DNA of 64,000 nucleotides from Dictyostelium discoideum (GCA_000004695.1 CM000150.2:4128001-4192000); one strand, 5' to 3'. Shown: positions 2,694-34,117, numbered from the stretch's first letter. The notes: generated by a model not told the origin, from the letters alone. A program made the numbers and translations.

Positions 2694-7261
<4,568 letters not shown>

Positions 7262-8185
7262 ATCTAATAAGGTGTAATAAAATTATTTTTTTTATTTTTT
7301 TATTTTATTATTTATTTGTTAAAAATTTGAAAAAAAAAAAAAAAAAAAAACAAAAAAAAAAAAGTTTGTGTGATATATATGGAAAATTTAATTAATTAAA
7401 AAATTTAAAAAAAAATAAAAAAAAAATAAAAAAAAAAAAAAAAAAAAAAAATAAAAAAAATAAAAATAAAAAAAGTTTAAAAAAAGAAATCCATAATATG
7501 GTATCGAAAAAATAAAAAAATAAAAAAGAATAAAAAAAAAACTATGTTTTGTTTAAATGACCCTTTAATGAAAAGACAACATTTGTTTTATTTATTTTTT
7601 TTTTTATTTTTATTTTTATTTTTTTTTTATTTTTTTTTTTATATTTTATTTTTCATTTTTTTTTTTTATTTTTTTTTTATTTTGGAAATTTTTAAAGGGT
7701 TGGATGTAGTATTAAAAAGGAAGGGATGTTATCATTTAATTAATTAAATAAATTCAAAAAAACTATTTTTATTTTTAAAGACTTGAATTTCCATTAAAGT
7801 TAATTAGTCTTTTTAAAATAAATAAAAATAGTTTTTTTGAATAAAAAAAAATATCTTTATATTCAAGCCCCTATTTATTTTTAATTTTTTTTATTTTTAG
7901 CCACTTCGCAAAATTTGAAATTCTGAAAATCTTTTTTTTTAATTTTTTTTTTTTTTATTTTTTCTTTTTTTTTCTTTTAATTAAAAAGCCATAAAACCAA
8001 AATCAGCACAGTGTTTTAAAAATGAAAACAAAAGACGTTTTTTTTTGACAGATTATTATTATTTTCAAAGAACAAGATATTTTTATTGTTTTTTTTTTCC
8101 TTAATTTTCAATCAAACTTTTTTTTATAAAAAATCTTGTTTTTTTTTTTATTTTTTTTTTTTTATTTCATTCAATACAAATAAAA

Positions 8186-10233
8186 ATGACTCAAAGAAGT
8201 TTAAAGATAAATATTATTGAAGGTAAAGATTTAAAAGGATTAGATAGTGGTGGTGTTAGTGATTGTTATGTTAAATTTAAATGTGGCCCAATCTCAGCCA
8301 AAACAGAAGTAATTAAAAAATCAACAAGCCCAATTTGGAATTATATGATTAATATGTAATATTATTTTTTATTAATTATTAATATAATAATAATAATAAT
8401 ATTTATAAATAATTATATACTAATTATATATTATTTAGTGGAAATGTTGAAGAGAATACATTATTACAATTTGAATGTTTTGATTGGGAGAGAATAGGTA
8501 ATAATAGAACTATGGGAAAAACACAAGCATTTGTTAGTGATTTATCAAGTGGAGCAAAAAGAAATTTAATGGATCAATGGTTAAGATTAGATACTAAAGG
8601 ATTCATTAGAATTTCATATGAATTTACTCCACCATATCCATTAGAAACAGAATCAACCAATTCACCAAATTTATCAGTAGTTGGAAATGGTAGTAGTAGT
8701 AGTAGTAGTTTAATGTATAATCCAACACCAGTTTATTTTAAACCAATTTTCTTACCAACAATACCATCAGAAACAATAAATAATAATAAAAGTACAACAT
8801 GTCATTTTTTAATTCCAGGATCAGTTTATCAAACTAGACCATTTGTATGTGGTGAATTTGTAAATTGTTCATTAGTTTTAAATGTGTTTGAAGCAAGAAT
8901 TGTTGTTAGATCATTGAATTTATCATTTTCAGGTTCTATTACTTATAAAGGTAAAAAACAAAGAAAATTAGTTAATGATTATAGAGATTTACTATTAGGA
9001 TTTACTGGTGGTGTTCCAGTACCAAATAATAATGGTAATAATAATTTAACATCAAATAAAGTTGTATTGGAAAGAGGTAAACATGTATTTCCATTTCAAT
9101 TTTTCATTGATAAAACTTGTAAATCCACTGTGAATTTAACAGATTATAAAGTGAATTATTATCTCTCATTTCATGCTGATATTGTTAATCAACCAGATAT
9201 TTCTGCATCACAAGAGATTAAAGTTGTCAATTTAGAAGACACAGTTTATAAACAAACCATATCACCAATAAATGCACAAACATCGAAATCACCACTAACT
9301 GGTGGTAATATTTCAATTTCGTGTAAATCAGTAAAGAATAGTTTTTACCCTGGTGAAGAGATAGAGTTAGAGGTTGAGGTTAATAATAGTAGTAAAAAGA
9401 AGATAAAGAATGTTGATATTCAATTGAACAAGGTGGAATACGATGGCACTGACGTGACAGGCACCTCCTACCAATTGTTGACTATGACAAAGAAATTCTA
9501 CCCAAAGATTAAACAAAACACAGCATGCAAGCAAATGGTAGTCATTGAATTACCATCAACAACACAGTGTGTGGGTTTGATTCATTCAATAGCTGAGACT
9601 AAGATGATAAGAGTTGAGTATCATTTACTTGTGAATTTGGATATCCCAAGTTGTGTTGACCTTCGTTTGAAATTACCAATTACCATAGTTCAACCAGACC
9701 CAAAGTTTGAAACACTTCCAAATCCATTGACTGAAATTGGTAATTTACCACGTTACGTTAAAGATTGGTCAATTAAAAATTTCCATAGTTGGGTTCTATT
9801 TAAAAAACAATGTCCAGATGTGATGGCTTTGAATCCGGAATTCTATCAATATAATCTCTCTGGCTCTGATTTAATGCAACTTCCAACGGAAACCCTCTAT
9901 TCAATATTCAAAGGAGCCGGTCCAAGGACTCAAGAATTGGTTAATGATTTACAATCTCAAATCTTTGAAATTAAATTGGTTAGAAATTTCCTTAAAGAAC
10001 TTCAACTTTCAAATTTAATAGATTACTTTGAAAAACAAACTATCACTTGGGATATTCTATTACAATTAAATTATAATGAAATTTTTTCAATTACTGATAT
10101 CACTATTGGTGATGCAAAAAGAATATTTTTAAAGATTCAACAAATTCAATCTGAAAGACAAAAACAACAAGAACAACAAGAACAGCAAGTTGTTTCAAAC
10201 CTTGAAGCTGTTAGTTTACAAAAATCAGAATAA
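8186..10233 (+). CDS. C2 domain + arrestin-like + C-terminal SAM-domain protein of 654 aa. The architecture is that of Dictyostelium AdcB/AdcC arrestin-domain proteins. Exons are 8186..8355 and 8439..10233.
   Basis: N-terminus: MTQRSLKINIIEGKDLKGLDSGGVSDCYVKFKCGPISAKTEVIKKSTSPIWNYMIN, a C2 fold, continued across an 83-nt intron (GTAATA...TTTAG) into IGNVEENTLLQFECFDWERIGNNRTMGKTQAF.... C-terminus: DLMQLPTETLYSIFKGAGPRTQELVNDLQSQIFEIKLVRNFLKELQLSNLIDYFEKQTITWDILLQLNYNEIFSITDITIGDAKRIFLKIQ, which is SAM-like. The arrestin N and C domains are inferred from the architecture and the roughly 400-aa middle, not verified by motif. Confidence 0.75.
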
Positions 10234-10890: not shown

Positions 10891-13800
10891 ATGAAAAATT
10901 ATTTTATTGTTTTTTTATTTCTTTTAAAACTATTATTATTATTTAATTGTATGCTTTTTTTATTTATTTTTTTAATTTTTAAATAAACAACCCATTTTAT
11001 TAATATTTTATTTTTTAAAACTTTTTTTTTTTTTTTTTTTTAAAAATTAATTTAATATAGGTTGTAATTCACAAGTTTCAATTGGAGAATTATACAATGA
11101 TGACGAAATAGATTCAAAATATTCTGATGGACAAGGTAACTACCACTTTAAATTAAATTATTTTCCAACAAGCACAAATTCAAATTACAATGGTGAAGAA
11201 TTTTTAAGTTTAGAAAAAAGTGCCTCCATAAGAGCATATAGGTTAGCTCAAAGTTGTACATTAATTGGCGCATCAGTTAAAATAGAGGATTGTCAATTCA
11301 TTGGACCATCTCCAGCCTATAATGGTCTCCCCTATTCAATCGTTATATCATCAGATCTAACATTAACAATTGCAGGTTCAATAAAAAATATTCCAATTCT
11401 TATTGTCCAAGGTCGTCTAATATTGCATCCAAATTATAATGTAACACTTTCATTCTATAAGATGCAAATCTTATCACGTGGTACTTTTGAATCTGCACCA
11501 AATCAAGGAGTTAATCATACTATCATTGTAGAAAGATCACCTAATGATCTCCAAATTGATCCATGGGATAGAAAAGATATTCCATCAATACTATCACTTG
11601 GTGGTAATGTTACGATTAGAGGTTTCGATTCAAGTTCAACATGGACTGGTTATAATGTAGCAAATCGAACATCATTCATTAGATCTTTTCCATTCACAAA
11701 TAATTTACCAATTATCAAGCTCTATGGTCATAAAAGTTTGTATACCGGTTTAGACCAATATATTAGATTGGACACTTATTTCACTGAATATATGAAAGAC
11801 TACGGCGTTGGTAAATATGCATATTCACCAGAAGGTAGCATTAATTGGCAGTATCAGAAACACGCCGTTGGTAATATATTAGTACATCCATGGAATAAAA
11901 ATGTATGGATCAAAGGTATGGGTAGTTGTTCAATGGTTTTCACTGGTTCATCAACTGTAGATATTCAAAATTCAGTAATCCTCGATTTTGGTGATACAAC
12001 ATCATCACCACTCAATTCAAATAGTAATATTCCAAATAGATATCCCATCACATTATATCACAATAAAAAGTTTGTCAAAATTGAAAACAATTGTTTTCTC
12101 CCAGCACTTTTCACAAGAGTACCACAACAAAGCTCAACACCTAGATCATTCATTGGTGCGATTCGTTCATTTGGTAATATCATTGGTAATTCATTCATAT
12201 TGTCTGAAACAAACATTGGTGGTACTGTCTATAGTATGAGTGGTATATCATTATTATATGGCACTGAACAATTTAATATTAGCTTCAATTCATTCATGTC
12301 AATTTATCCAAATAGCTCATTAAACAATCCAATTTCATCAAGTAGACAATATCCAGATAATATCGATTATATCAATAGTGGTATTATTACAACTTCACCA
12401 TACTCATTTTATGAATCAAATGTATTTGAAGGTGGATTCAAAGGTAGTTCAATTCAAATTATTCCATTACAATCAAGATCAACAATTGCTGGTTTAAATA
12501 GTGATAGATTATTAGGTGTTTACAATGGATATGAACAATCAAATCTCAATGATAAAGTAACCAATAGTATTTGGAATAAAGTTATTTTCAAAGATAATGC
12601 ATTCTTTGGTGAATCAGAATTTCGTGTTACATATCCAATGTCATTACAACCACCAATTAAAATCAACTTTTTAAGAGGTTGGCATATTAATCAAAGACCA
12701 TCAGATGTTTTACCATTTAATGAAGCAAATGTCGATTACTCATATGATTCCTCTTTTGTTGCCAATGGTTTAACTAAATACGCTTGGTATAGTTTTTCAA
12801 ATATTTTTTCAGGTAAATGTAATAGTGTTTCATTTTCCAATTCAGATTTATCATTTTCCACTTCATTATTTTCATCTTCATTCAAATGTAATTATATTTC
12901 TATCGTTGATTCAAAATACAAAATAAATTTACATGAAGGAGATAATAGTTCAACCATTTTTAAAAGATTCACTGATCAAGTATACTTTTCAAATCTTAAT
13001 GGTTCTAAAGATGCTAAAAGTTTGGCACAGTTAAATGAATTTACACCTTTCCTCAACATATCACCAAATAATAGTCAAGCAATAACTCAAAATAATTTTA
13101 CTCTTTCATTCCTTCCAAGTTCTATAAGTTCATTTGAAAGTTTAAATCAATCAATTGAAGCCATCGTTGATGGTGTTTATCAAAATGTTACATTAATTAC
13201 TTTGCCATTTGATCCAATTCAATCAATGCCTATTCAATTACCACCATCTACTTCTAGTTTATATACAGTGGTTTTATCATCGAAATTGTCACTACCAGCT
13301 AGTCTTAACTTGAGCCTTCCAGAAGTAGGATCTTATTTTGCAAGTACTTATCTTTTAGATAACAATGCAAAAAATTTCTACCTTGGTATCGATTTAGCAC
13401 CATCCGATAGTAATACACCACGTAAACTTTCAGTAAATGGTAAAGATTGGACAAGATGTGATTGGATTCAATCATTAAATAAATGTACAACCTCTGGTAT
13501 GTTCTCATTGAGTTCTGTTGATATTCCATTTGGAACTGGTAGTGGTGGTCAAGATGAAATTTCAATGATTAAAACTTACCTTGGTAATGATGTAACCAAT
13601 GGTATTCCAAGTACACTCAATATATCATTAGCAGGTCCACATTCATACAAGTTTTATTTATATTCATTTAATTCAGATTGGACAGATTCAATCATTAATC
13701 CAACACCATTATTTTCAATTAAAATCAATGGTAAATATCAAGAACCAATAACAAGATCAGCACCAATATATCTTCAATCTAAAAGATATGGTCCATTCTA

Positions 13801-13933
13801 TTGGAATAATATTAATTCAAATGAACAAGTTTTATCAATTGATTGGGCAACTGATAATATTAAATATTCAATTCCATTATCTGGTATTGAAATTTATTCA
13901 AGTATTCAAACTCCATTCTCAATCCCATATTAA
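10891..13933 (+). CDS. Family-1 secreted Ser/Asn-rich protein of about 977 aa. Exons are 10891..10948 (signal peptide) and 11061..13933.
   Basis: The 58-nt first exon, MKNYFIVFLFLLKLLLLFN, is nucleotide-identical to the first exon of the minus-strand paralog at 42918..42861. The donor is GTATGC and the acceptor ATATAG. The body has repeated hydrophobic/Gly-Ser strands (NVWIKGMGSCSMVFTGSSTVDIQNSVILDFGDTTS; IGAIRSFGNIIGNSFILSE; ISLLYGTEQFNISFNSF) that suggest a parallel beta-helix. The C-terminal region is conserved (…WTRCDWIQSLNKCTTSG…FYWNNINSNEQVLSIDWATDNIKYSIPLSGIEIYSSIQTPFSIPY*). Confidence 0.7.
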
Positions 13934-14035
13934 CAAATGGTAAATCTTTTTTTATATTTGTTCCATTCACAGTGACTCAACGAAAAAATAAAAAATAAAA
14001 AATAAAAAAAAATATAACTTTTTTTAAAAAAAGTT

Positions 14036-14049
14036 TTGGTTGCGATATC

Positions 14050-14080
<31 letters not shown>

Positions 14081-14530
14081 ATTTGGCGATTGGTTCAACG
14101 GACGCTATCGAAGATGACCAAAGGAAAACTGATTGTCGATCTCGGTTTGAATATTCAAAAAATATTGAAAAAAAAAAAAAAAAATATGGAAATAATTTTG
14201 TGTAACCCATTATTTTCACTCCTCACAATAAAACATTTCATATCCTCTTTATTAATTTTATTATTTATATTTTTTTTTTTTTTTCATTGGTGTTGTTTCA
14301 GAATAAGATTCAAAAAAAAAAAAATTTTTAATTAACTTTTTTTAACTGTAAATAGAGACTGGTACCTGATGTGTTGTGATTGAGAGAATGATAAAATAAA
14401 TATTCGCTGTATCCTAACAACTTTTTGTTTATATTTTATAATGAAAGATTATAAAATATTATTTTACGACAAAAAAAAAAAAAATACTTTTCGTTTATTT
14501 TTTACAAATCACAGTAAAAAAAAAAAAAAA
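14036..14530. repeat. Orphan partial copy of the conserved non-coding module found upstream of the family-2 genes.
   Basis: About 85% similar to 14600-15110 and 19640-20130. Shared blocks include ...ggcgattggttcaacggacgctatcgaagatgaccaaaggaaaactgattgtcgatctcggtttgaatattcaaaaaatattg..., ...gtgtaacccattattttc..., ...ggtgtgttgtgattgaga... and tttcgtttattttttacaaat. No coding exon follows this copy. Confidence 0.7.
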
Positions 14531-14583
14531 AGAAAAAAAAAATAAATAAAAAACATACTTTTCGTTTATTTTTTACAAATCAT

Positions 14584-14599
<16 letters not shown>

Positions 14600-14622
<23 letters not shown>

Positions 14623-15110
14623 AAAAAACATTGCCAAAGAATTTTTTGGTGGCTGGTTGAAAATGAAAGGGCGGTATTGAAGATGAATAATGGAAACTGA
14701 TTGTGGATCTTGGTTAGAATATTCATAAAAAAAAAAAAAAATTAAAATTAAAAAAAAAAAAAAAAGTGGAAATATTTTCGTGCAACCCATTATTTTCCCA
14801 CCTCCAATTTTTTTTTTTAAAAACGTTAAACATAACAAACTTATTTTCACATTCTTTATATTAATTTTATTTTTTTTTCATTGGTTTTTTTTTTGCTGGA
14901 TCAAGATTCAAAAAAAAAAAAATAAAAAAATTTTTTAAAAAAAAAAATAATTTAATAATTTGTTGACTGTTAATAGAACAAGTGTTTGCCTCAGGTGTGT
15001 TGTGATTGAGAATGCCGAAATTAATATTCGCAGCATCTTATCAACAAAAGTGGAACCACTTTTCGTTTATTTTTTACAAATTATAGAAAATTATAATTAA
15101 AATAATATTA
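14600..15110. promoter_or_regulatory. Conserved upstream non-coding module of family-2 gene copy 1. It is unusually GC-rich for intergenic DNA here.
   Basis: Homologous to 19640-20130 and partly to 14036-14530. It contains the motif TTTCGTTTATTTTTTACAAAT at about 14556 and about 15062. Confidence 0.5.
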
Positions 15111-15231
15111 TTTTACGATAAAAAAAAAAATATTTAAAAGAAAAAAACTAAATTATATTTTTTTTTTTTTTTTTTTGTTATAAAATAATAGTTAATATAG
15201 CTAAATTATAGTTATAATTTTTAAAAAAAAT

Positions 15232-15295
15232 ATGAAATTAATTTCAATAATTTTTTCCTTATTTTTAATAATCAATTTGGTTTTTTCTACAGGTA

Positions 15296-15327
<32 letters not shown>

Positions 15328-18300
15328 CAGAAAAATAAAATATTATTCAGTTTTAAATTATTTTAATAGTAAAAAAATCAATCAATTAAATAAATAAATC
15401 ACCGGAGGTACTCTTGTGTTACAAATTTGGTTTCACAATTATCATATTTTAATTTATTTTAGAATTTTTTTTTTTTTTTTTTTTCTAATTTTTTTTTTTT
15501 TTAATAATTTAAAAATAATAATAATAATATTAATATAATAATAAAAATCATTTAAAAGATCCAACAATTGTTAGTTTTAGAAAGCCAGTTGAAAAAGTAT
15601 ATCCAAGTGAATATTGTTTGCCATCTTTCACTATATTGATTAATTATCCAGATCCAATCCAATATAATTATCAATTAGGTTTATATGATAGGAGTGGAGG
15701 GTATGGTGGCAGCATGCCATCTGCCGTAAATGGAACCTTATATCTTTTTACACTTACACATAAAGTTCCAATTGGTAAAAATCAACCAGTTTCTTTGTAT
15801 ATCCAAGATACCTCAAAAAATCCATGGTTTACTTTTGATTTCAATAACTATACTACCTATGATTGCGATCCACTTCCACCTGTTACTATGAAATCAAAAC
15901 AAAATACTTGGATTAAAACTAGTGGCCAATATTCCAATTTAATTTGGTACCATATGGTTGAAGTTTCAGGTTTAGATAAATCAGCTCCATACGATGCTTT
16001 TACATGTAATGTTCCAAAGCCATTTATTTGTATGTTCCAAGAGTTTCTTAATGGTCCAAAACCAATCAATTTTTATTTCCAAGTTGGAATTTATACGACA
16101 GATGTAAACTTCGCCCCATTCAATGTAACTGTTACAGATAAACTAGGTAAAGTTTTACTTAATAGTCTTTTTGATGGTTTAAGTGCACCAGCAAACCCAC
16201 CTGTTTCAATTAGATCCTTAGAAAATTATCCAATCAATGGTTCAACTGTTACTAAAAATGAAATGGTTAATGATGCAATGTATATTATGAATATCATAAA
16301 CAAAAATGCTCTTTGTGGTATTTCATCACCAAAAGATTTTTTGATTTCAAATATATTAATCCCAGTTTTAGGTACACCTGCAAATGCTTCTTACATTGGT
16401 TTCTCATCTTTTAACTATCAAAATAGTCCAATTAAATCCCATGTTCAGATCATTGATAGTCAAGGTACAAAAAGAATTGGTATTGATAATGTGCTTTTTG
16501 TTAATCGTAAGTATTTATATTTTTATTTAGATTTTTTTTTATTTTTTATATATACTAATTATAATTTTGTATTTATTATTTTAAAATAGCAAAATCTTAT
16601 GATAATGTCATTGAAAATGTTCAAAATGCAACCTATGTTAAAAGCTCTAATATTAATAAAACTTTAATTAATATTAAGGCTGATGTTTCATTTAATCCAA
16701 AAGCTACTTTAACAAGTAGCTTTTCAACTTCTTTATACCAAACAGTGTTAGCATATCCATATGGTTATTCAAATGGTACAGTTAAATACCATTCAGTTTC
16801 ATTGTCATCTGCATCTCCAGAGTATTCCACTTCTTCAAATTCATATATAATTTTAGGCTCTCCATCTGAAATCGGATCCGGTAATTCATCACTAATCACA
16901 GTTAATCCAAATTCAACAATAGGTAAGAATTTATCTTTTATAAAATTACTTTATAAACATCGGCTTATATTAATCATTTTATCATATATTTTTTAATAAT
17001 ATTGTTATTATGCTTTAGAAACAAAAATACCACAACTTTTGAAAGTTGAAACCGTTTTCCTTTCATATGAAAAAGTACTTACCAGAGTTTTTGCTAAAGA
17101 TGTTGATTCTGGTATTTCATTTTTGTATTTATCAAATTTAAATAAAGTTTCCTCTGCCGATTTAGTATATGGTGATAATTTCAATGGTGTTTATGAATCT
17201 GTTGAAACATTTACCACCATGTATGGCAATGAAAGACCAACCGTTTCAATCTATGATAATGCTGGTAATAATATTCAATACAATAATATGCAACCAACAT
17301 TCGATACATCATTCAATATGATCCCTGAATACCCTGCTTACAGTATGTATTTTTTAAATAATATTAATTTCTTTTTAAAAAAAAAAAAACAAACTACTAA
17401 ATTATTAATAAAATTACTTTATTATAGCAATGATTAAAAACCAAGCCAATTTAGACCCATACACTTTCACTGGTTTTGAATTTAAGTACAATGATGTTGA
17501 TGTTTCAAATGGTCCATTCAATAATACTTTATGTATGAACTTTGCAGGTTCCAATAAAACAATGACTCCACGTTTCTTACAATTTTCTTTAGCATTAAAT
17601 CCGGAAAAGGCATCATTAGATAACGCCACACCAGGCTCATGGGATGAAGTCAAAGGTATGTTTTGTATGGATTTCCAAATTCCAGCAAGAATTTTCACTG
17701 GTGAATATACATATGCTGTTCTCATTCCACCATTCGTTTATGACTCTTACTATTTTGCTATTTCAGTTGGTAGTAAAGCTCAATTAAGAGTTAACTCAGG
17801 TTTTGCTGATCAAATGCCACCTATCATTACTGAATTCTCTTCATATCCATCAAATGCTGTTAATGTCACTCAAGATACTGTTGTCGGTTGGAATATTAGA
17901 ATTGAAGATTCTCCAAATGGTTTAGCAAGTGGTGAATTTAATATCACAAGTGATTTCGATTTAGAACCATATAGAATTAAGATTACTCCAGCCAATGCTG
18001 TATCTGGTGATATTTTCAGTTCTACATATCAATTAAGAATTCCAATTAAAGCAAACACTTGTAGATCTCAATCATTTAGAATTTCATCAGCATCAATTAC
18101 TGATACAATGGGTCATACTTCAGTTTTACCATCTTCTGGAAATGTTAATCCATTATATAAATTCTTAGAATCACCACACTTGGTTTTAAATATTACTTGT
18201 CCACAAGCTATCATCGATAATACCCCACCATCTTTAATTAGTTTCTCAACTGTTAGTTCAATCGAAGTTGGTGCTTATAAAGATTTTAGAAATGTTACAT

Positions 18301-19175
18301 TTACCTTCAAAACATCAGATTCTGGTTCTGGTATTTCATCAAGACACAATCCAAAAATCTATTTATCATCAGGTGAATTTGATCAAATTTCAAAGATTAG
18401 TACATTGGTATCCAATGTAAATGGTGTCGCTACTTATACCTGCACTATTGAATTACCATATGGTTATGGTTCATATAATGGAATTCTTGTTTCAATATAT
18501 GGTATTGTTGATAATAAATTAAATATTAATGGTTATTCATCAGTTGATCTCCAACAACTCGGTTTCCAAAATACAATTAAAGTTTTATATTCTGATGTAC
18601 CAGTACTTGATTACACAAGTTCAATTAAATCAACTGAATCATCATTGACTATCTATGGTCATAAATTTGGTATCGATAGAAGTAAAGTTACATTACAAGT
18701 TGATTATATGAAGGGTCAAGGTTGGAAGAATACAACAATCTCATTCTTTTCTGGTATTATTTTAATGACTGATAATATTACACCAACATCAACACCATTC
18801 TACGTTCGTGTTATTGTAGATGGTAAAATTTCAAATCAACTTTTAGTAGTTCCAATCATTGTTGGTGATAGTCCATGTAGTTATGAAGTTATTCAATCAA
18901 TAGTTGCTACTTGGATCGATAGTGAAAAATATCCATATCTTCAAGCATCTATCACTATTAAAAATACAGGTACAAGACCAATTAAAGCATTTAGTTTCAT
19001 TATTGAAAAAATTGCTTATGGTCAAATTTGGGGTGTTGATGCAAATGGTAATAATAGATACACTTTACCATCATATAATTTAATCATTAATCCTCGTGAT
19101 CAATATAGTTTCGGTTATATCATTCAAGGTACAACTGTTGCTGATCTCAAACAAGTCACTTATACTTGTCTTTAA
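15232..19175 (+). CDS. Family-2 secreted protein of about 1,137 aa, tandem copy 1. Exons are 15232..15292, 15559..16506, 16590..16922, 17019..17342 and 17428..19175.
   Basis: Exon 1 is a signal peptide, MKLISIIFSLFLIINLVFST. All donors are GTAAGT/GTAAGA/GTATGT and all acceptors AG, and the phases are consistent with the ORF-track frames at 15618, 16745, 17039 and 17430. The exon structure is identical to the paralog at 20273..24208. Product unknown: Cys-poor, Ser/Thr/Asn-rich, with many N-x-S/T sites. Confidence 0.75.
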
Positions 19176-19639
19176 AAATTTCAATTTAGTTTTGGAATAA
19201 TAAAAAAAAAAAACCCTTTTGGAGTGTAAAAATAAAAATAAAACATTCAAATTTGCCGTCAGTAAAAAAAAAGATTTAATTTTATTTATTTTAAAAATAA
19301 ATTTAGTATATATGAATAGAGTACTCAAAAATGAACAAAATGAATTCTTTAAATAAAATTAATTGTGTTTAATTATTTTTTATATTTTTTTATTTTTATA
19401 TAAAATATAAATATTTGTCTTTCATACTCTAGAGAATATTTATTTATTTATTTTTTTTTTTTCGAATAACGGCTAAAATTGGCATGGACAAATACCATCG
19501 CGGTATGAAAAAAAAAAAATAAAAAAAATAACAAAAAAAATTAAAAAATAAAAAGATGAAAAAATTATACGACCTATTCATCCTAATTAACTTAAAAACT
19601 CGTCATTCGGTGATTGCGATATCAAAAAAAAAAAAAAAA

Positions 19640-20130
19640 AAAAAAGTTAATAAATTAAAAATATGGCCCAAGAATTTTTTGGTGATTGGTTGAAAATGAA
19701 AAGACGGTATCGAAGATAACTAATGGAAAACTGATTGTCGATCTTGGTTTGAATATTCAAAAAATATTGAAAAAAAAAAAAAGTGGAAATAGTTTCGTGT
19801 AACCTATTATTTTCCCACCTCGAAATTTTTTAAAAATATTAAATTAAACATAAAAAACTTATTTTCATATTTTTTTTTTAATTAATTTTTTTCATTGGTG
19901 TTGTTTTAGAATCAAGATTCAAAAAAAAAAAAATAATAAAAATAAAAATAAAAATAATAATTTTAAATAGTTTGTGCTGACTGTTAACATAACAAGGGAT
20001 TTGACTCAGGTGTGTTGTGATTTGAAGAATGCTGAAATCAATATTTGCTGCATCTTATCAACAAAAACGAAATCATTTTCGTTTATTTTTTTTACAAATT
20101 ATAGAAAATTATAATTAAAATAATATTTTT
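19640..20130. promoter_or_regulatory. Conserved upstream non-coding module of family-2 gene copy 2.
   Basis: See 14600-15110. It contains TTTCGTTTATTTTTTTTACAAAT at about 20072. Confidence 0.5.
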
Positions 20131-20135
20131 TTACG

Positions 20136-20180
<45 letters not shown>

Positions 20181-20272
20181 GTATTTAAAAAAAAAAAAAA
20201 TAGTTTTTTTTTTGTAAAATAATAGTTAACAATAACCAAATTATAGTTATAATTTTTTATTTTAAAAAAAAT

Positions 20273-20490
20273 ATGAAATCAATTTCAATAATTTTTTCCT
20301 TATTTTTAATAATCAATTTGGTTTTTTCTGCTGGTAAGTTTTTTTTTTTTTTATTTTTAAAATAAATAAAAAATTATTTAGTTTCAAATTATTTTAATAT
20401 TAATGATTAATGAATCAATTAAAAAAATATTAATGGAATTAACTATTGTGAAATTACAAATTTGGTTTCACAATTATCATATTTTCATTC

Positions 20491-20522
<32 letters not shown>

Positions 20523-23500
20523 TTATTTTTCATTTTTTAAATAATTTAAAAATAATAATATTAATGTAAATTTTTTATTATTATTTTAAAGATCCAACAA
20601 TTGTTAGTTTTAGAAAGCCAGTTGAAAGAGTATATCCAGGTGAATATTGTTTGCCTTCTTTCACTGTATTGGTCAATTATCCAGATCCAATCCAATATAA
20701 TTATCAATTAGGTTTATTTGATAAGAGTGGAGGATATGGTAGCAACATACCATCTGCTGTAAATGGAACCTTATATCTTTTTACACTTACCCATAAAGTT
20801 CCAATTGGTAAAAATCAACCAGTTTCTTTGTATATTCAAGATTACTCAAAAAACCCATGGTTTACTTTTGATTTCAATAACTATACTACCTATGATTGCG
20901 ATCCACTTCCACCTGTTACTATGAAATCAAAACAAAATACTTGGATTAGATCAAGTGGCCAATATACCAATTTAGTTTGGTACCATATGGTTGAAGTTTC
21001 AGGTTTAGATAAATCAGCTCCATACGATGCTTTTACATGTAATGTTCCAGAACCATTTTATTGTGCATTCCAAGAGTTTCTTAATGGTCCAAAACCAATC
21101 AACTATTATTTCCAAATTGCAATTCGTAAAAGTGATGTAAATTTCACCCCATTCAATGTAACTATTACAGATAAACAAGGTAAAGTTTTACTTAATAGTC
21201 TTTTTGATGGTTTAAGTGCACCAGCAAACCCACCTGTTTCAATTAGATCCTTAGAAAATTATCCAATCAATGGTTCAACTGTTACTAAAAATGAAATGGT
21301 TAATGATGCAATGTATATTATGAATATCATAAACAAAAATGCTCTTTGTGGTATTTCATCACCAAAAGATTATTTTATTGGAAATACATTAATCCCAGTT
21401 TTAGGTACACCTTCAAATGCTACTTACATTGGTTTCTCATCTTTTTTATATCAAAATGGTCCAATTGAATCTCATGTTCAAATCATTGATAGTCAAGGTA
21501 CAAAAAGAATTGGTATTGATAATGTGCTTTTAATTAATCGTAAGTTTAAAAAATTATAATAATTATTTTAATCTTTTTATATAATCACACTAATTATATT
21601 TTAATTATTTTTATTATTAAACAGCAAAATCTTATGATAATGTCATTGAAAATGTTCAAAATGCAACCTATGTTAAAAGCTCTAATATTAATAAAACTTT
21701 AATTAATATTAAGGCTGATGTTTCATTTAATCCAAAAACTTCTCACACAAGTAGCTTTTTATCTTCTCAAAGAGAAACCGTCTTAGATTATCCATATGGT
21801 TATTCAAATGGTACAATTAAATACCATTCAGTTTCATTCTCAAAAACATCTCCAGAGTATTCCACTTCTTCAAATTCATATATGAGTATAAACTCTCCAT
21901 CTGATATCGGAAATGGTAATTCATCACTAATTGAAATTGCTACAAATTCAACTATAGGTAAGAATTAATATTATTATTTAAAAAAGATAAATTATTAAAT
22001 ATATTAATCATTCGATCATATTTATTATTATTATTATTATTCTTAAGATTCCAAAATACCACAACTTTTGAAAGTTGAAACTGTATTCCTTTCATATGAA
22101 AAAGTACTTGTCAGAATTTTTGCTAAAGATGTTGATTCTGGTATTTCATATTTGCATTCTACAAATTTGCATAAAATTTCCCCAGCCGATTTAGTATATG
22201 GTGATAATTTCAATGGTGTTTATGAAACTGTTGAAACATTAGCAACTATGTATGGTAATGAAAGACCAACCGTTTCAATCTATGATAATGCTGGTAATAA
22301 TATTCAATACAATAGTATGCAACCAACATTCGATACATCATTCAATATGATCCCTGAATACCCAGTTTACAGTATGTATTTTTAATATTAAAAAAAAAAA
22401 AAAAAAAAAAAAAACAAACAAAACATTAAATAAATTATTAATAAAATTACTTTATTATAGCAATGATTAAAAACCAAGCCAATTTAGACCCATACACTTT
22501 CACTGGTTTTGAATTTAAGTACAATGATGTTGATGTTTCAAATGGTCCATTCAATAATACTTTATGTATGAACTTTGCAGGTTCTAATAAAACAATGACT
22601 CCACGTTTCTTACAACTTCCTTTAGCATTAAATCCAGAAAAGGCATCATTAGATAACGCCACACCAGGCTCATGGGATGAAGTCAAAGGTATGTTTTGTA
22701 TGGATTTCCAAATTCCAGCAAGAATTTTCACTGGTGAATATACATATGCTGTTCTCATTCCACCATTCGTTTATGACTCTTACTATTTTGCTATCTCAGT
22801 TGGTAGTAAAGCTCAATTAAGAGTTAACTCAGGTTTTGCTGATCAAATGCCACCTATCATTACTGAATTCTCTTCATATCCATCAAATGCTGTTAATGTC
22901 ACTCAAGATACTGTTGTCGGTTGGAATATTAGAATTGAAGATTCTCCAAATGGTTTAGCAAGTGGTGAATTTAATATCACAAGTGATTTCGATTTAGAAC
23001 CATATAGAATTAAGATTACTCCAGCCAATGCTGTATCTGGTGATATTTTCAGTTCTACATATCAATTAAGAATTCCAATTAAAGCAAACACTTGTAGATC
23101 TCAATCATTTAGAATTTCATCAGCATCAATTACTGATACAATGGGTCATACTTCAGTTTTACCATCTTCTGGAAATGTTAATCCATTATATAAATTCTTA
23201 GAATCACCACACTTGGTTTTAAATATTACTTGTCCACAAGCTATCATCGATAATACCCCACCATCTTTAATTAGTTTCTCAACTGTTAGTTCAATCGAAG
23301 TTGGTGCTTATAAAGATTTTAGAAATGTTACATTTACCTTCAAAACATCAGATTCTGGTTCTGGTATTTCATCAAGACACAATCCAAAAATCTATTTATC
23401 ATCAGGTGAATTTGATCAAATTTCAAAGATTAGTACATTGGTATCCAATGTAAATGGTGTCGCTACTTATACCTGCACTATTGAATTACCATATGGTTAT

Positions 23501-24208
23501 GGTTCATATAATGGAATTCTTGTTTCAATATATGGTATTGTTGATAATAAATTAAATATTAATGGTTATTCATCAGTTGATCTCCAACAACTCGGTTTCC
23601 AAAATACAATTAAAGTTTTATATTCTGATGTACCAGTACTTGATTACACAAGTTCAATCAAATCAACTGAATCATCATTGACTATCTATGGTCATAAATT
23701 TGGTATCGATAGAAGTAAAGTTACATTACAAGTTGATTATCAGAATGGTCAAGGTTGGAAGAATACAACAATCTCATTCTTTTCTGGTATTATTTTAATG
23801 ACTGATAATATTACACCAACATCAACACCATTCTATGTTCGTGTAATCGTAGACGGTAAAATTTCAAATCAACTTTTAGTAGTTCCAATCGTTGTTGGTG
23901 ATAGTCCATGTAGTTATGAAGTTATTCAATCAATAGTTGCTACTTGGATCGATAGTGAAAAATATCCATATCTTCAAGCATCTATCACTATTAAAAATAC
24001 AGGTACAAGACCAATTAAAGCATTTAGTTTCATTATTGAAAAAATTGCTTATGGTCAAATTTGGGGTGTTGATGCAAATGGTAATAATAGATACACTTTA
24101 CCATCATATAATTTAATCATTAATCCTCGTGATCAGTATAGTTTTGGTTATATCATTCAAGGTACAACTGTTGCTGATCTCAAACAAGTCACTTATACTT
24201 GTCTTTAA
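20273..24208 (+). CDS. Family-2 secreted protein, tandem copy 2. Exons are 20273..20333, 20592..21539, 21625..21957, 22048..22371 and 22461..24208.
   Basis: The splice positions and phases match copy 1. The last-exon product (581 aa) differs from copy 1 at only about 4 residues (FSLALNP/LPLALNP, YMKGQGW/YQNGQGW, IIVGDS/IVVGDS). The exon-2 products are only about 90% identical. Confidence 0.75.
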
Positions 24209-24837
24209 AAATTTCAATTTAGTTTTGGAATAATAAAAAAATAAAAAAAAAATGAAAAAAAAAAATAAAAATAAAATAAAAATAAAAATAAAAAAAATAT
24301 AAAAATAAAAATAACACCATAATTATTTTTTTATATATCATTTTGTGTAATTTCGAGAGCTCTATTTTTATATTAAAAAAAATATATAAACATTCTTTTT
24401 TTTTTCATTATGCAAAAACAACAAAGTGTTATTATTACAAAAAATTTATAAAATTTTTTTTTTATTAAATTTTATATTTATTTTTATTTTTTTTTTCATA
24501 ATTATCAAATGTAGATATTTTTTTTTTAAAGTTAATAGTAATAATGGATAATGAAAAAAATGGAAATATCTTTTTCACAAACATTATCTCACATTTTCAA
24601 AAGAAAATTACCAAATCTTTTCAAAAAAAAAAAAAAAAAAAAAAAAATTAATGACATCGCATGATTTTTTTATTTATTGAAAAAAAAGAAGATATTTTCA
24701 TCGGGAATAATCAAAAACTTTTTTTTAAAAAAAAAATTTATTTTTAGTTTTATTTTTTTTTTTCTACACACCATTTTTTTTTTTTTTTAATAATTTTTTT
24801 TTTTTTTTTTTTATTTAATAATTTTTTTTTATAAACA

Positions 24838-27800
24838 ATGAAATTAAAAAGTATTGGATTTGGTCAATTAAATTTATTTGATGATCATCTCTGTAATGGT
24901 AACAATGTGACAACAACAGAAATTAATAAATGTGATAACTCTGAACATTCTGGTCAATCATCACTCAAAGTAGTTGAAAATTTTTTTAATCACCATGATT
25001 TTTCAGCATTTCTTTCTTTCAATTCATTTCATCATCATCACCATCATGGAATGAAGTCAGACAATACATTTTGTACAAATTTAAGTAAATTGAAATCAGA
25101 ATTTATATCAAGTATTTTACCACCAAATGAAATTAATAAATCATCAAGTAATATATCAACAGCACCAGCAACAAATACAATTGTTGAAGCCACTGAAATT
25201 AAATTGAATGATGAAATTATTAAAAAGAATGAATCACTTTCAACTCTTTTAATTTATTTTTTATCAGATATATTAATTCATCAACCTTTTGATTCATTAT
25301 CACAAATAAATAAATCTTTAAAAAAATTCTTTAATATTTCTGATAAATTATTAAAAACTTTATTTAAAAAATCATTATCTTTAACCAAAGTAAGTAAAAT
25401 AATGGTTTTATTAAAAAAAAAAAAAAAAAAAAAAATTAATATGTATATATATTAATAATAATTTTACTTTAGTATTATTTATTAGAAATTAATAAATATA
25501 AAGAATATTATTCAAAATTACAAGATTTTGAAAGTGAAGAATTTAGAGGTGATAAGATTTTAATGGAAAAGATTAGAGTTTTTAATTTAAAAAGAATTGA
25601 AGAAATTGAAAAAAAGAATCAAAATATTAAATATTTAAACTTTTTAAACACAGTGATGGTAAAAGTTTATAGTGCAAAAGGATTAGAGATTAAAGATTTA
25701 ATTTCATCAGATCCTTATGTAAATTTATTTTTTACAGATTCACAAGATGAAAAACCACATCATAGGGAATCATTAAATACAATTTATTTAAATGATGAAA
25801 AACAAAAACATCATCATCATAGTAGTTTTAAAACCACAGTTAAAAAGGGTACATTAACACCAGTATGGAATGAACAATTTATAATGTCAACTGATAAACC
25901 AGATCAAAATATTTTAATTGCTTCCATTTATGATTTCGATCAAGTTAGTAAATCAGATTTTATGGGATTCTTACCAATTCATTTAGAACATGAACATGAG
26001 CATGAACATGATGAAAATAAATCAATTCATAATCATCATCATGATAATGATGATGAACATGGTAATGGTAATGAACATGGTCATCATGAATATATGAATC
26101 ATATTAATCCAATCGTTGAAAATATTCAAGAATATGAATTACTATCAAAACCAAAAGGACATTTAACAAAGTTTAAATCTTTATTAGGAATTACAAGTAG
26201 TCCAGATATAAAGAATGATAATGAAATTAGAAAGTATGGTTCAATTAAATTGGGTTTAATTCATTTAAAGAGAGAGATTTTAAAAGTTGAAGAAATTAAT
26301 GTAAACAATCAAAATTTACCTTCAAAACAAATTGATATCCAAATGAATCAAAATCATGAAAATTCAATTAAATCATTAATTGAATTTTCAATTAATAGTC
26401 AAGATGAAATTAATTTACCAAAAGAAATTGAAAAACTATTAGAATCATTTTCATCAAGAGTATTATTATCACCATTAATTATTCCATTGGTAAAGATTGA
26501 AAAATTGATTGAAAATTTTCAAATTTCAACATCAGCTATGGATGAAATTAATAGATTATTATTGGAATCAATTGAATTGGTAACAGTTAAAAAGATTCCA
26601 TTATCAAAACCAATTGAAGAAAGATTTTTAATAATGTTAAAATCTATAAAGAAATTATATAAAGGTATTTTAAAAAGATATCCATTATCTTTCCCAATTA
26701 CAATTAATCAAGAAACAAAATTAGCTGAAAATATTGGATCAAGTGGTACATTATTAACATTGGCAATTGAAACATTGGAGATAATTTATAATTATCAATC
26801 AAAACAATGTAAACTAAAGAAAATTGTAGAGAATTACATTGAATTTTGTTGGAGTTGTATAAAAGAAAAATCACTAATTTCAATTGAAGGTTCAAAAGAT
26901 TTTGAAAATATAGTTGGTTTATTAGATATCTATGATGCAATTGAATTACAATTATTATTGGATATTGAAATGTATTCACAATTTTTCCCAGCCCATTTCG
27001 ATTTGGCTACAATCTCTTCAAAAAGTTATTACAAACTATTGAAAGAAGAAACTGAAAGATTATTAGCAAAAGAGGATAAAGTTTGTATGGAAACATTTAA
27101 TCTTTTGAAAAAGATTCAAAAAATTGAAAAAACAATTATTAAACCATATGAAAAAGAAATTGAATCAATGATGAATTTAAATCAATTATTTAAAAGATTT
27201 ATTAAAATGTGGATTAAAGAAATTAAGAAGCAATTTAATCTTTGGATTGGTCGTAGTCTTGAAAAAGAAGAATGGAAATCAATTGATAGTAAGAATAATC
27301 AATTACATTCAAATTCATTGGTTGATTTATTTACAATCTTTGAAATTGGTAAAAATCATTTACTTGGTTTAGATTTAGAAATTGATCAATTCCTTTTTGA
27401 ATTGATTGATATTGTTAATCAATTATATAATCAATATTTAGATATAGTTTTAAATTCAATTTTATCAGATTTAAAAAGAGATAATTCAACAATACCATTA
27501 TTTATTGATGAAGTTAATGATAATTATATTTCAAGTTTATCAAAATTCATTTCAAAAATTAAATTATCAAACCTTGATCAACAATCTTCAACAACTACTA
27601 CCACTACAACAAATGGAAATACTATTTCAAATATTCAAATTACAAATTCAATAATTTGTATTAAATTAAATTGTTTAGAATTTTCAAGACAATTATTATT
27701 TGATTTTTCAAGTGATTTAGAATTAAAATTACCAAATTTAAAAGAAAAAATTCAAGATTCATTTGGTATTTCATTTTTAAATTCAAAAAAGAAATATGAT

Positions 27801-29306
27801 TATATAATTGATTTAGTAATTAATAATATTAGTAAATGGATTAAAGTTTTATTAGTTCAAATTTTAGATAATTCAAAGAATAATCATGATGATCAGATTT
27901 GTAAACTATCAAAAGATCAAATACCAAATCTAATAAATGAAAATAAAGTAAATGAATTATTAGATTCATTAACTATACTATTAAATAATGAATTGACAAT
28001 TCTTAGTGGTAATCTTTATTATCCAACTTTTAGTAGATTCATTAGAGGTGTTTGGCAATCAATTTGGAAAGAGTTTGATAGAATCTTATTCCCAGAATTT
28101 AAATTACAATCAGAGAAATTAGAAACTACTTTCTATAAATCTTTAGTTATATTATCAATTTATCCAACATTGGAAGAGTTTTTCAATGCAGATGGTAGTG
28201 GTATTTCAATTGAACAATTAAGAAATCATTCAGAGTATTTACTTTCAACTATTTCAGTTTATCTTTCAAATCCTTCAAATTTATTACAAGTTTATAATAG
28301 TATTAGCTCTTTTATTGGAGAGTCTAAACCATCATCATCGTCATCACCAATAGATTATTCTTTTATAAATTCAAAATTATTTTCAATTAATCAATTTGAA
28401 CAATTTAAATCATTTAACTTTAATAAAAATAATTATGTTAAAGAGTTACATGTTTTATGTTCAATTTCATCCTATTGTAATAGTGGTAGTTCAATTGTTA
28501 CCAATGGTTTAATTACACCAGAATTAGATTCTTCTTTTAAAAAGATAATTTCAACACTTGGCTCCTTTAAGAATCGTTTCGTTTTAGATAAATTTTCTTT
28601 GGATTCATCAGTATCAATTTATCAAAATGATTTCAAATGTAAAACTTTAAATGGTATTCCTTCAAATGCTTATATTTTAAATGATTGTTTATGTTGGTCA
28701 AGTTGGTTATGTTATAATGAAACTAAAGTTATCCTAAAATATTCATCATTTAAATCAATTACAAGACAACAACATGAGTCTAATGATGTTTTATTTATAA
28801 TTACAATGGATGATGATAAAACTTATGAAATTTGCTCTATAACTTCTCAAGATTCAATCTTTAAATCTTTAATTTTAAATTCTAAAAAATTAAATCAATC
28901 AGTATGTATTAATTTTTTTTTTTTTTTTTTTTATTATTAATTTACTTTTTCTAATTTTTTTTTTTTTTTTTTTTCCTTTTTTTTTTTTTTTTTTTTATTA
29001 TCAATTTACTTTTAGATTGAAATAATTGATCATATTAAATCAAAGGTTGAACTACATACAAGTGATAATAGTAATTTCATTGTAAAAGAAAGTACATCAA
29101 CTGTTGTTAATAAAGAGGGTAAAATCATTGACATTAAACCAGAACATGAATCTCATATCTCATATGATGATAGTATTGAGTATCATACATTATTCCATTT
29201 AGATAAAGACAATATAATCTATCAAGTTTATCCTTGTTTCACTGGTAAATTAATTACAACCAGAGATTACTTTTGCCACCATAATAATTTAACAAAAGCA
29301 AATGTA

Positions 29307-29914: not shown

Positions 29915-30830
29915 ACTACTTAAATTGGAAGAGGGTTCGGAGCTGCTGGGGTTTGCCAGGCTTTGTTGAATTTGTATTTGTGAAGATCTTGATAGGTGTT
30001 TTTTAGTATTGCTTCGTCGTGTTTGATTTTCTTTAGTGTGATGAATTTTTCAGTTTCGATGAGATTTAGTAATTCTGTTTCTATGACCTTTTGCTCGAAT
30101 TTTGGCTCTGGTTTGCTTTCATCAGTGTTGAACAATTTGTGACAGATTATCTTCCATAATTGGTGTGCTATTATTCCTATGAGGTTGGGGAAGATTCTCT
30201 CAGTTCTGTTGTATTTTGATATGTCTAAGGTATCCATTGACCATCTGTGGATTTTGATGAATGATAATTTGTTAACTGTTGATATGATGGTTTTTTCAAT
30301 ATCTAGGATATCTTGGCATAGAGTGAAGAGGTGAGAATAAGGGTCTCTGAATAGGTGGCCACAGATCTTGCATCTGGTATCTCTTTCGTGGTTGATACCT
30401 GGAAGTGATCTTGAGAAGAATCTGAAGAGGGTGTTTCTACCTTTTTGGTGAGAAATGCTGTTGATGTTTATGAATACTTTGGGTATTGCTGTGTTGTATC
30501 TCACCGCCCATAACTTCTGCCATTCTGTTCTTCTTGGTGTTGGGTGTCTGTCTTTGATCATGAGTTCGTAGATTTCTTTCAGTTTTAGTGGTTCGTCATT
30601 GTCGTTTCTTATACAGTCTGGAAGTTCATTTATCTTTGGATGGTTTTGGTAAAATTTGACTCTGAATACACCCCAGTGTCTGCACATATCGTTGAGGGTT
30701 GAAGTGTGGGCTTTTTTCTACTTAATTGCTCCATGTACCATTCTTGTAAAGTATTGTTGTTGTTGTTGTTGTTGTTATGGAGTAGCCTATAAAGACATCT
30801 TCCCATTTTTTTCAAATGTTTTCAAGGAAT
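29853..30830 (-). mobile_element. 5'-truncated non-LTR retrotransposon 3' end on the minus strand, TRE3-like by position. It holds a degenerate ORF2 C-terminus (ORFs 30815..30630 and 30687..29920, frameshifted) and a 58-nt poly(A) tail at 29910..29853.
   Basis: ORF 29920-30687 encodes a C-terminal Cys/His box (..RCKICGHLFRDPYSHLFTLCQ..) typical of the LINE ORF2 3' domain. A poly(A) tract lies immediately 3' on the same strand. The element sits on the 3' side of tRNA-Lys, just beyond its ex-B box, which is where TRE3 elements are known to integrate. Confidence 0.6.
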
Positions 30831-30836: not shown

Positions 30837-30869
30837 TGTGATTTAATTGTGGAAAAATTAAAAAAATTT

Positions 30870-30942
30870 CGCCCAAAGGGGGGCTCGAACCCCCGACCAC
30901 AAGGTTAAAAGCCTTGCGCTCTACCGACTGAGCTATCTGGGC
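30870..30942 (-). tRNA. tRNA-Lys (anticodon UUU), 73 nt.
   Basis: Minus-strand sequence: GCCCAGATAGCTCAGTCGGTAGAGCGCAAGGCTTTTAACCTTGTGGTCGGGGGTTCGAGCCCCCCTTTGGGCG. I folded it by hand. Acceptor 7 bp with one G-U, D-stem GCTC/GAGC, anticodon stem CAAGG/CCTTG, loop CTTTTAA, T-stem GGGGG/CCCCC, TTCGAGC loop. Confidence 0.9.
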
Positions 30943-30984
30943 ATTTGTATATTTTTTTTTGAAACTATAGCAGTACTTGATCGT

Positions 30985-33457: not shown

Positions 33458-33459
<2 letters not shown>

Positions 33460-34057: not shown

Positions 34058-34117
<60 letters not shown>
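33458..34117 (+). mobile_element. Composite of TRE5 fragments. First is a truncated copy (end of B-module-like region, ORF1 start, internal deletion, C-module-like 3' end, oligo(A)). Next is the target-site repeat 'cttgatcgttatat' at about 33791. Last is an ORF2 C-terminal fragment with a 50-nt poly(A).
   Basis: 33504-33690 is about 98% identical to 31771-31960. 33693-33790 matches the 3' terminal module repeated at 35388-35470. Poly(A) lies at 34065-34117. Confidence 0.6.

Follow-up and report, generated by a model that had tools for sequence, protein, structure and literature searches.

The analysed sequence is a 64,000-nucleotide (nt) stretch of chromosome 1 of Dictyostelium discoideum AX4 (GCA_000004695.1 CM000150.2:4128001-4192000), in the following called the window; all coordinates are window positions. 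The window is very AT-rich, with a GC content of 17-30% and long homopolymer runs. It harbours two neighbouring genes in head-to-tail orientation, DDB_G0270058 (gene A) and DDB_G0270060 (gene B), which are already annotated as paralogs and are referred to here as family 2. A third copy of their upstream flank, the orphan module, precedes gene A. Comparison of the locus among five genomes in all indicates that the pair arose by an old tandem duplication and that the 3' halves of the two genes have been homogenised by recurrent interlocus gene conversion, while the N-terminal halves of the proteins appear to be kept apart by selection. For this comparison, orthologous loci were taken from four other discoideum-complex genomes. 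Two of them are labelled D. discoideum (L001 and L002, which are close relatives) and two D. cf. discoideum (L003 and L004).

Self-comparison of the window revealed one long direct repeat, 14592-19213 versus 19624-24247, with 91.0% identity over 4,686 columns and a period of ~5,033 nt. As is typical of a tandem segmental duplication, the copies are adjacent and direct, collinear across the unit and share the same exon-intron structure. Both genes were spliced from the sequence. Their exon lengths of 61/948/333/324/1748 nt are the same, so the identical intron positions that a first-pass annotation of the window had described for two five-exon genes are borne out. The spliced translations agree letter-for-letter with XP_646513.1 (“hypothetical protein”) for gene A and XP_646514.1 (“carbohydrate-binding domain-containing protein”) for gene B. 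Gene B was identified as DDB_G0270060 because the published primers for quantitative reverse-transcription polymerase chain reaction (qRT-PCR) of DDB_G0270060 match it exactly; in gene A they have 1 and 2 mismatches. The features of the repeat are as follows:

14592 to 15231, plus strand: 5'-flank module of gene A (presumed promoter and 5' untranslated region), 84% identity to 19624-20272
15232 to 19175, plus strand: gene A, DDB_G0270058, exons 15232-15292, 15559-16506, 16590-16922, 17019-17342 and 17428-19175, 1137 amino acids (aa)
19214 to 19563, no strand assigned: unique spacer between A and B, 350 nt, conserved in L001 and L002
19564 to 19625, plus strand: left flank of unit B (TATACGACC...GATTGCGATATC), common to the single unit of L004 and partly to the orphan module, score 96 versus a null maximum of 70
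19624 to 20272, plus strand: 5'-flank module of gene B, the counterpart of the gene A module in alignments
20273 to 24208, plus strand: gene B, DDB_G0270060, exons 20273-20333, 20592-21539, 21625-21957, 22048-22371 and 22461-24208, 1137 aa

A tandem duplication of ~5 kb with a secreted-protein gene had been proposed in the first-pass annotation. The duplication is real, but the unit already ends at 19213 and 24247, 38 nt past the stop codon, and the spacer is unique. Counterparts of the spacer (19214-19563) were sought downstream of gene B and upstream of the orphan module, also in the other genomes, and the local alignments did not exceed shuffled controls, except for a left flank of ~60-120 nt in common with L004. 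The whole spacer as part of the repeat unit was dropped; only this left flank beat the shuffled controls. At the beginning of exon 5, each copy contains an antisense open reading frame (ORF) of 103 aa (17414-17725 and 22447-22758, minus strand), probably a side effect of the coding strand.

Identity between copies A and B forms a mosaic along the unit:

5' flank: 84%
exon 1: 95%
intron 1: 81%
exon 2: 94%
intron 2: 68%
exon 3: 88%
intron 3: 67%
exon 4: 92%
intron 4: 87%, with the last ~30 nt identical
exon 5: 99.1%, 16 of 1748 nt differing
38 nt after the stop codon: 97%
17398 to 19213, plus strand: homogenised tract of copy A, consisting of the 3' end of intron 4, exon 5 and 38 nt of 3' flank, with 17 substitutions in 1816 columns
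22431 to 24247, plus strand: homogenised tract of copy B, the counterpart of 17398-19213

The maximum-likelihood single change point was located at 17398, within intron 4 and just after its poly-A run. Identity is thus not uniform along the unit: in the pairwise alignment, divergence amounts to 12.4% left of this position (337 substitutions in 2725 columns) versus 0.94% right of it (17 in 1816). The change point has a likelihood-ratio statistic of 254 (Fisher p = 8e-57), and the longest exact run between A and B measures 863 nt versus a maximum of 163 nt in 2000 permutations. Because of these values, the mosaic lies far beyond chance. The corresponding statements of the first-pass annotation, namely last exons more than 99% identical, an alignable intron 4 and exon-2 products with about 90% identity, agree well with these figures; for the products of exons 1 and 2 together, 39 of 336 aa differ (88% identity).

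The order gene A, gene B, C2-domain gene was found in L001, L002 and L003 as well. A second lab-strain assembly, probably of AX2, encodes proteins identical to both AX4 proteins. Since the same tandem pair occurs in three other genomes and identical proteins in this second assembly, an assembly artefact is excluded as the source of the duplication. Assemblies based on Nanopore and Illumina data exist for AX2, two tropical D. discoideum isolates and two possible cryptic species (PMC12745789), and the assemblies compared here are presumably the same ones. Synonymous divergence (dS) from AX4 in the neighbouring C2 gene is 0.07-0.08 for L001/L002, 0.10 for L003 and 0.13 for L004, so that the four genomes are separated enough to be informative. 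As judged from the sequences, the duplication predates the split of AX4 from the four other discoideum-complex genomes. L004 carries one family-2 gene (9364-14104 in L004). Its 5' half is of A type and its downstream flank is that of B, and its only 5' module has a B-type left flank. The gene shows the A state at 32 of 38 diagnostic residues. Dictyostelium firmibasis shows the B state at 7 diagnostic sites and the A state at 3, from which it follows that the A state is partly derived and that L004 carries it. We read the single copy of L004 as a secondary loss and as the product expected of unequal crossing-over inside the homogenised exon 5.

The two halves of the proteins show different relationships. 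Over aa 1-555, A-type and B-type proteins differ at 68-94 residues, and orthologs within a type at 7-60. Over aa 556-1137, paralogs of the same genome differ at 5-10 residues and proteins of well-separated genomes (AX4, L001/L002, L003) at 15-31; 3-10 residues differ between the close relatives L001 and L002. Informative sites were defined as those that split two genomes and two copies either by genome or by orthology. For exon 5, the counts by genome versus by orthology were 37:0, 31:1, 52:0, 55:2 and 49:1 in the five well-separated genome pairs and 10:12 in the close pair L001/L002. Further upstream the reverse is observed. Between AX4 and L001, the same counts were 2:57 for the upstream region, 4:38 for exon 2, 1:66 for intron 2 to intron 3 and 4:15 for exon 4, and the 5' module A groups by orthology across the genomes (57 sites versus 2). 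As the bootstrap of deep nodes in neighbour-joining trees was unreliable owing to rooting, only shallow clades and site counts were used.

Paralog dS is 0.026-0.045 in exon 5 versus 0.095-0.141 in exons 1-4, and dS of orthologs and flanking genes between genomes is 0.07-0.19. The low divergence of exon 5 is not due to purifying selection, because paralog dS falls below both the value for exons 1-4 and that between genomes. Homogenisation also reaches silent and intronic sites, the 3' end of intron 4 being identical. The longest identical tract is placed differently in each genome, at 17762-18626 in AX4, 17465-18020 in L001 and 17945-18761 in L003. The tract positions, the exon 5 sites that group by genome, the dS values and the protein distances together point to recurrent interlocus gene conversion that homogenises exon 5 separately in each lineage, with the upstream region and exons 2-4 grouping by orthology.

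Exons 1-4 seem not to be entirely spared. They contain 33 sites that group by genome, interleaved with fixed differences between A and B, which is suggestive, although a few of the sites could be parallel changes. Paralog dS in exons 1-4 (0.10-0.14) stays below the 0.17-0.19 of the deepest ortholog comparison. Because of these two observations, conversion seems to touch the 5' half as well, in short patches. A recent gene conversion confined to the 3' half, as suggested by the first-pass annotation, is supported by the grouping in four genomes as far as conversion is concerned, but “confined” is too strong in view of the 33 sites.

Between all A and all B copies, 51 nucleotide positions are fixed in exons 1-4, and no fixed difference was found in exon 5. 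Of these 51 positions, 47 are nonsynonymous and 4 synonymous, versus 146 nonsynonymous and 116 synonymous among the non-fixed variable positions of exons 1-4 (Fisher p = 2e-7); the classification is crude, and calls in codons with multiple hits are approximate. Counted by codon, 37 replacement and 1 silent codon are fixed versus 103 and 86 non-fixed ones (p = 6e-8). Compared with a neutral expectation of 21.6% synonymous changes, the fixed differences deviate as well (binomial p = 0.008), and omega, the ratio of nonsynonymous to synonymous rates, is ~3 on the A-B branch. The fixed differences cluster at aa 71-201, 282-335, 377-443 and 469-513. On the predicted structure, 24 of the sites lie in strands and 13 in coil, so that no enrichment in loops is seen. 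It appears that selection keeps the N-terminal halves apart by removing conversion tracts that would erase amino-acid differences. Selection of this kind is the preferred reading of the boundary.

Upstream of gene A, a further module copy and its junction with module A were found:

~14038 to 14486, plus strand: orphan 5'-flank module, which starts with GGTTGCGATATC and poly-A and ends with TTTTACGAC and poly-A
14473 to 14631, plus strand: mini-repeat at the junction of orphan module and module A, 71-nt unit, 2.2 copies, 90% matches (Tandem Repeats Finder)

The first-pass annotation had listed three upstream module copies, the first being an orphan that might go back to a partial third duplication or a deleted gene. 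The third copy is real, and the deleted gene is the less likely of these two options, since no coding remnant was found. The orphan can be aligned to the modules of both genes; the alignment begins at the poly-A run with which those modules start and extends to a landmark of TTTTACGAY and poly-A, which in intact module copies lies ~95 nt before the start codon. In an alignment of thirteen modules across the genomes, the orphan has 78% identity to module A and 79% to module B, and modules A and B have 85% to each other. In L001 and L002 it occupies the corresponding position and has two private deletions; in L003 it is reduced to its first ~180 nt, and from L004 it is absent. The orphan module therewith appears to be old and decaying. 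At its left border lies the edge motif of the repeat unit, GRTTGCGATATC with poly-A behind it. This border, G(G/A)TTGCGATATC and poly-A, is the one of unit B and differs from that of module A, and the L003 orphan retains ATACGACCTA of the left flank of B. The orphan may accordingly carry the original left end of unit A. Each 71-nt unit of the mini-repeat consists of a 3' piece of the module, a poly-A run and the 5' start of the module; AX4 has 2.2 copies of it and L001 one. Neither an exon 1 nor a coding remnant was found after the orphan, in AX4 or in the other genomes. Paralog identity of the 5' modules is 84% versus 67-81% for introns 1-3, and their ortholog identity is similar to that of introns. 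A search of 13900-20400 against Rfam gave no match, and no known RNA was found in the modules. Module B contains a small ORF (MAQEFF...), which was dropped as a candidate because module A has no conserved counterpart.

Both proteins consist of a signal-peptide-like start, ~425 aa without a Pfam match, the domains DUF7743, DUF7035 and DUF7034 and a C-terminal CBM49. DUF7743 corresponds to the product of exon 4. In this order, the three DUF domains reach 126, 139.7 and 123.8 bits versus a cut-off of 27, and CBM49 (PF09478, aa 1042-1121) reaches 80.7 bits versus a gathering score of 23.4. The AlphaFold model is a string of beta-sandwiches (predicted local distance difference test 77, predicted template modelling score 0.72), in which CBM49 is the part with the lowest confidence. 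The product is predicted to be a secreted, all-beta, multi-domain protein ending in CBM49. No transmembrane segment was seen, and there was no match to Pfam IPT/TIG. A Foldseek search with the full model gave only generic multi Ig-like or macroglobulin-like proteins with template modelling scores near 0.1 and no functional lead, and a sequence search of PDB gave no match. An exhaustive search detected 421 cluster representatives at E <= 0.001, most of them aligned over aa 250-1035. The representatives that were looked up are dictyostelid; most of them are longer and have the central domains in common. The N-terminal part was aligned only in D. firmibasis RB653_009864 (48% identity) and in a partial Polysphondylium violaceum protein (35%). 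RB653_009864 is the only full-length match and is single-copy within 10 kb. In a homologous-protein search, two distant matches were obtained with exon 5 and none with the N-terminal half, the D. discoideum proteins themselves also being missed.

The same three DUF domains, with scores far above threshold, characterise a dictyostelid family annotated as “EGF-like domain-containing” (e.g., PPL_11382). In contrast to A and B, which end in CBM49, the consensus of a 40-sequence alignment of this family has a Cys-rich EGF-like region and a C-terminal extension. With their signal peptide and C-terminal CBM49, A and B also resemble CBM49-containing proteins of the wall and matrix in Dictyostelium and Acanthamoeba, namely staD, somC and somE (PMC9117722) and the Luke lectins (PMC6541295), but the A and B proteins are much larger and have a unique N-terminal half of ~445 aa without a Pfam match.

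Expression of both genes has been described. On exposure to Klebsiella pneumoniae KpGe, DDB_G0270060 was up-regulated with a log2 fold change of +3.57, which was confirmed by qRT-PCR, and DDB_G0270058 appears in another up-regulated list with +3.43 (PMC7078664). For both genes, this amounts to a roughly ten-fold induction by K. pneumoniae. Both genes are among the K. pneumoniae Kp21-regulated genes under the Gene Ontology (GO) term GO:0019953, sexual reproduction (PMC7078664 supplement), and the neighbouring family-1 gene DDB_G0270056 is repressed by bacteria (PMC7078664). The two copies are thus both expressed and regulated alike, in agreement with the 5' modules that they have in common. The GO term in dictyBase reportedly goes back to the gamete-enriched cDNA library of Muramoto et al. 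2003.

Taken together, we propose the following history. An old head-to-tail duplication of a ~5-kb unit, consisting of 5' flank and five-exon gene, was followed by repeated non-reciprocal exchange of sequence between the copies, i.e., interlocus gene conversion. Over the 3' 1.8 kb, which extend from the last part of intron 4 to the unit end, conversion is complete and recurrent, so that each lineage shows concerted evolution of the halves containing DUF7035, DUF7034 and CBM49. Homogenisation of the 5' half would be restricted to short patches; neutral differences would be erased by conversion, while in every genome copy-specific amino acids are retained at ~37 codons. Tracts that erase these amino acids would be removed by selection, and the N-terminal halves would then have distinct functions or specificities. 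The orphan module may be the decaying remainder of an event in which ~570 nt of the 5' flank of gene A were duplicated locally in tandem across poly-A runs. The duplication, the mosaic of identity, the concerted evolution of exon 5, the replacement excess and the expression of both genes are demonstrated by the data, and the role of selection at the boundary, the protein function and the descent of the orphan are inferred. We regard this explanation as a whole, comprising old duplication, recurrent conversion, selection on the N-terminal halves and flank duplication, as probable.

Two alternatives concern the near-identity of exon 5. The assembler might have created it, or the duplication itself, as the exact run of 863 nt exceeds a Sanger read and short-read polishing is able to copy variants from one paralog to the other. 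This is very improbable, since three other assemblies contain the tandem pair as well and the second lab-strain assembly encodes identical proteins; long-read assemblies of such kind have been described (PMC12745789), 16 differences in exon 5 are resolved in AX4, and the gene-specific qRT-PCR primers match gene B exactly and yield a product consistent with RNA sequencing (PMC7078664). A staggered history had also been considered in the first-pass annotation. Here the 3' half would have been duplicated, or replaced by unequal crossing-over, in a single event later than the 5' half, which AX4 alone cannot distinguish from conversion; in addition, unequal crossing-over seems to occur at the locus, as judged from the single L004 gene with the A-type 5' half and the downstream flank of B. 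However, exon 5 groups by genome in AX4, in the L001/L002 lineage and in L003 with differing tract ends, for which one shared event is insufficient. The same re-duplication would have to occur independently in every lineage, and copy number stays at two. We therefore give this alternative hardly any weight and retain recurrent conversion as the cause of the similarity in exon 5.

More serious competitors exist for the boundary and for the orphan module. The boundary could be merely mechanical, with conversion limited to the 3' 1.8 kb as the sole long uninterrupted stretch of high identity, and the amino-acid differences of the 5' half could reflect an early adaptive or relaxed burst without active protection. 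Introns 2 and 3 with only 67-68% identity and many gap columns fit this explanation, and so does the AX4 tract, which begins at the poly-A run of intron 4 and ends exactly at the unit end. Divergence that suppresses recombination is a known self-reinforcing effect. Against it stand the 33 sites grouping by genome, which are scattered among the fixed differences of exons 1-4, and the 5'-half paralog dS no higher than ortholog dS, both of which suggest that conversion reaches the 5' half, as well as the fixation of only 4 synonymous versus 47 nonsynonymous differences. Both the purely mechanical limit and the unprotected burst are considered unlikely, although with five genomes they are not fully separable from selection, and a mechanical barrier is a partial rival to it. 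For the orphan, a remnant of a deleted third gene copy is doubtful to a similar degree. The orphan is the most divergent module (78-79% versus 85%) and could predate the split of A and B, and it has the left-edge motif of a full unit (GCGATATC edge). However, none of the genomes has an exon 1 or other coding remnant behind the orphan, the junction consists of pieces of the module itself repeated head-to-tail, in one or two copies depending on the genome, and three events are needed instead of two. A local duplication of the 5' flank is therefore more likely than the remains of a third gene.

Several points weigh against the explanation preferred here, that is, recurrent conversion with selection on the N-terminal halves. 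The excess of replacements, obtained with the crude classification mentioned above, could stem from a short adaptive burst right after duplication, and introns 2 and 3 with their indels could then block long tracts mechanically. The sample of five genomes is small, and the outgroup D. firmibasis is distant. Polishing of near-identical paralogs might have homogenised the comparison assemblies artificially, which is countered by the Sanger-era AX4 sequence and the identical second lab-strain proteins for AX4 only. With 78% and 79% identity, the orphan stands equally far from modules A and B, so that its proposed origin is tentative. Binding of cellulose, finally, is a prediction from the Pfam match to CBM49.

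The neighbourhood of the locus is structurally unstable. Directly upstream of the orphan module lies a gene of a different family:

10893 to 13933, plus strand: family-1 gene, DDB_G0270056 by position, signal-peptide-like first exon, 836-aa main ORF 11423-13933, no Pfam match, outside the repeat

No sequence similarity was detected between family 1 and family 2, so that the ~14-kb block of large secreted proteins proposed in the first-pass annotation holds as a description only, the two families being unrelated in sequence. Three more family-1 relatives are located on the minus strand (37037-39517, 39920-42376 and 43729-44352). Two of them are full-length with 64% and 69% aa identity. The third, a fragment of the C-terminal part, shares 94% identity with aa 628-836 of the product of 11423-13933, and this looks like another case of mosaic identity or partial conversion. 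In L003 (3837-4300), no family-1 gene separates the arrestin-domain gene from the orphan, but a short motif that follows the family-1 stop codon in AX4 is retained; L004 (7865-9010) has only a 3' fragment of family 1. Instead of the region with tRNA-Lys and repeats, L001, L002 and L004 have a family-1 paralog in inverted orientation downstream of the C2 gene. This region of AX4 contains tRNA-Lys(UUU) at 30869-30943 (minus strand), adjoining a 199-nt tandem repeat with 3.5 copies and 99% identity (30990-31677). A 255-aa ORF (29920-30687, minus strand) lies nearby, and the region as a whole looks like the remains of a tRNA-targeted retroelement. The flanking genes at 8512-10233 (arrestin-N/C and SAM domains) and 25563-28940 (C2 and PATROL1-like, Munc13-type) have a ratio of nonsynonymous to synonymous divergence (dN/dS) of 0.05-0.20 and are much more strongly constrained than family 1 (~0.6) or family 2, in which ortholog dN/dS is 0.15-0.41. 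Strong GC and AT skew of up to +/-0.47 was observed at 4001-8000, 32001-36000 and 48001-50000, stretches that may be repetitive coding sequence.

With respect to phylogenetic analysis, trees calculated from the 3' half of the A and B genes mislead, and short reads cannot be assigned to one of the copies over ~1.8 kb. DDB_G0270058 and DDB_G0270060, which are uncharacterised, Klebsiella-induced and annotated with “sexual reproduction”, are candidates for functional work. Region-limited concerted evolution in which selected differences survive is a known phenomenon. Human gamma-globin, RHD/RHCE and red/green opsin genes provide the classic examples of it. What is new is the demonstration for DDB_G0270058 and DDB_G0270060, the evidence from several genomes and the N-terminal half as the part that probably diverged in function, which provides a well-resolved five-genome case in an amoebozoan.

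A closely comparable system is the ATP1A1 gene pair of Leptodactylus frogs (bioRxiv 10.1101/2020.08.04.234435). These paralogs are likewise arranged in tandem and homogenised non-reciprocally, and the copies of one genome resemble each other more closely than orthologs of different genomes do. A limited set of amino-acid differences survives conversion there, which was read as selection for a division of labour. In contrast to ATP1A1, the differences found here are spread over a 5' half of 1.6 kb, the whole 3' exon is homogenised, and the organism is a haploid social amoeba.

Within Dictyostelium, the allorecognition locus tgrB1/tgrC1 also consists of adjacent, fast-evolving genes shaped by duplication and local recombination, and the long-read genome set used for it appears to apply to the A/B locus too (PMC12745789). 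The products of tgrB1 and tgrC1 are cell-surface proteins, and those of A and B have a signal peptide. In contrast to tgrB1/tgrC1, genes A and B are arranged head-to-tail, and their products, for which an all-beta fold is predicted, give no Pfam IPT/TIG match and show no transmembrane segment. Their modest ortholog dN/dS also differs from the hypervariability of tgrB1/tgrC1, and there is no evidence for a role in recognition. It is therefore rather speculative, and improbable on the present data, that A and B form a two-component recognition or adhesion system, in which a homogenised C-terminal “stalk” with a glycan-binding anchor would carry two N-terminal heads that are kept different. Such heads might serve interactions with gametes or the macrocyst wall, in line with the GO term “sexual reproduction”, or the recognition of bacteria, in line with the induction by Klebsiella. 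If this were true, the pair would represent a second fast-evolving locus for extracellular recognition in Dictyostelium besides tgrB1/tgrC1.

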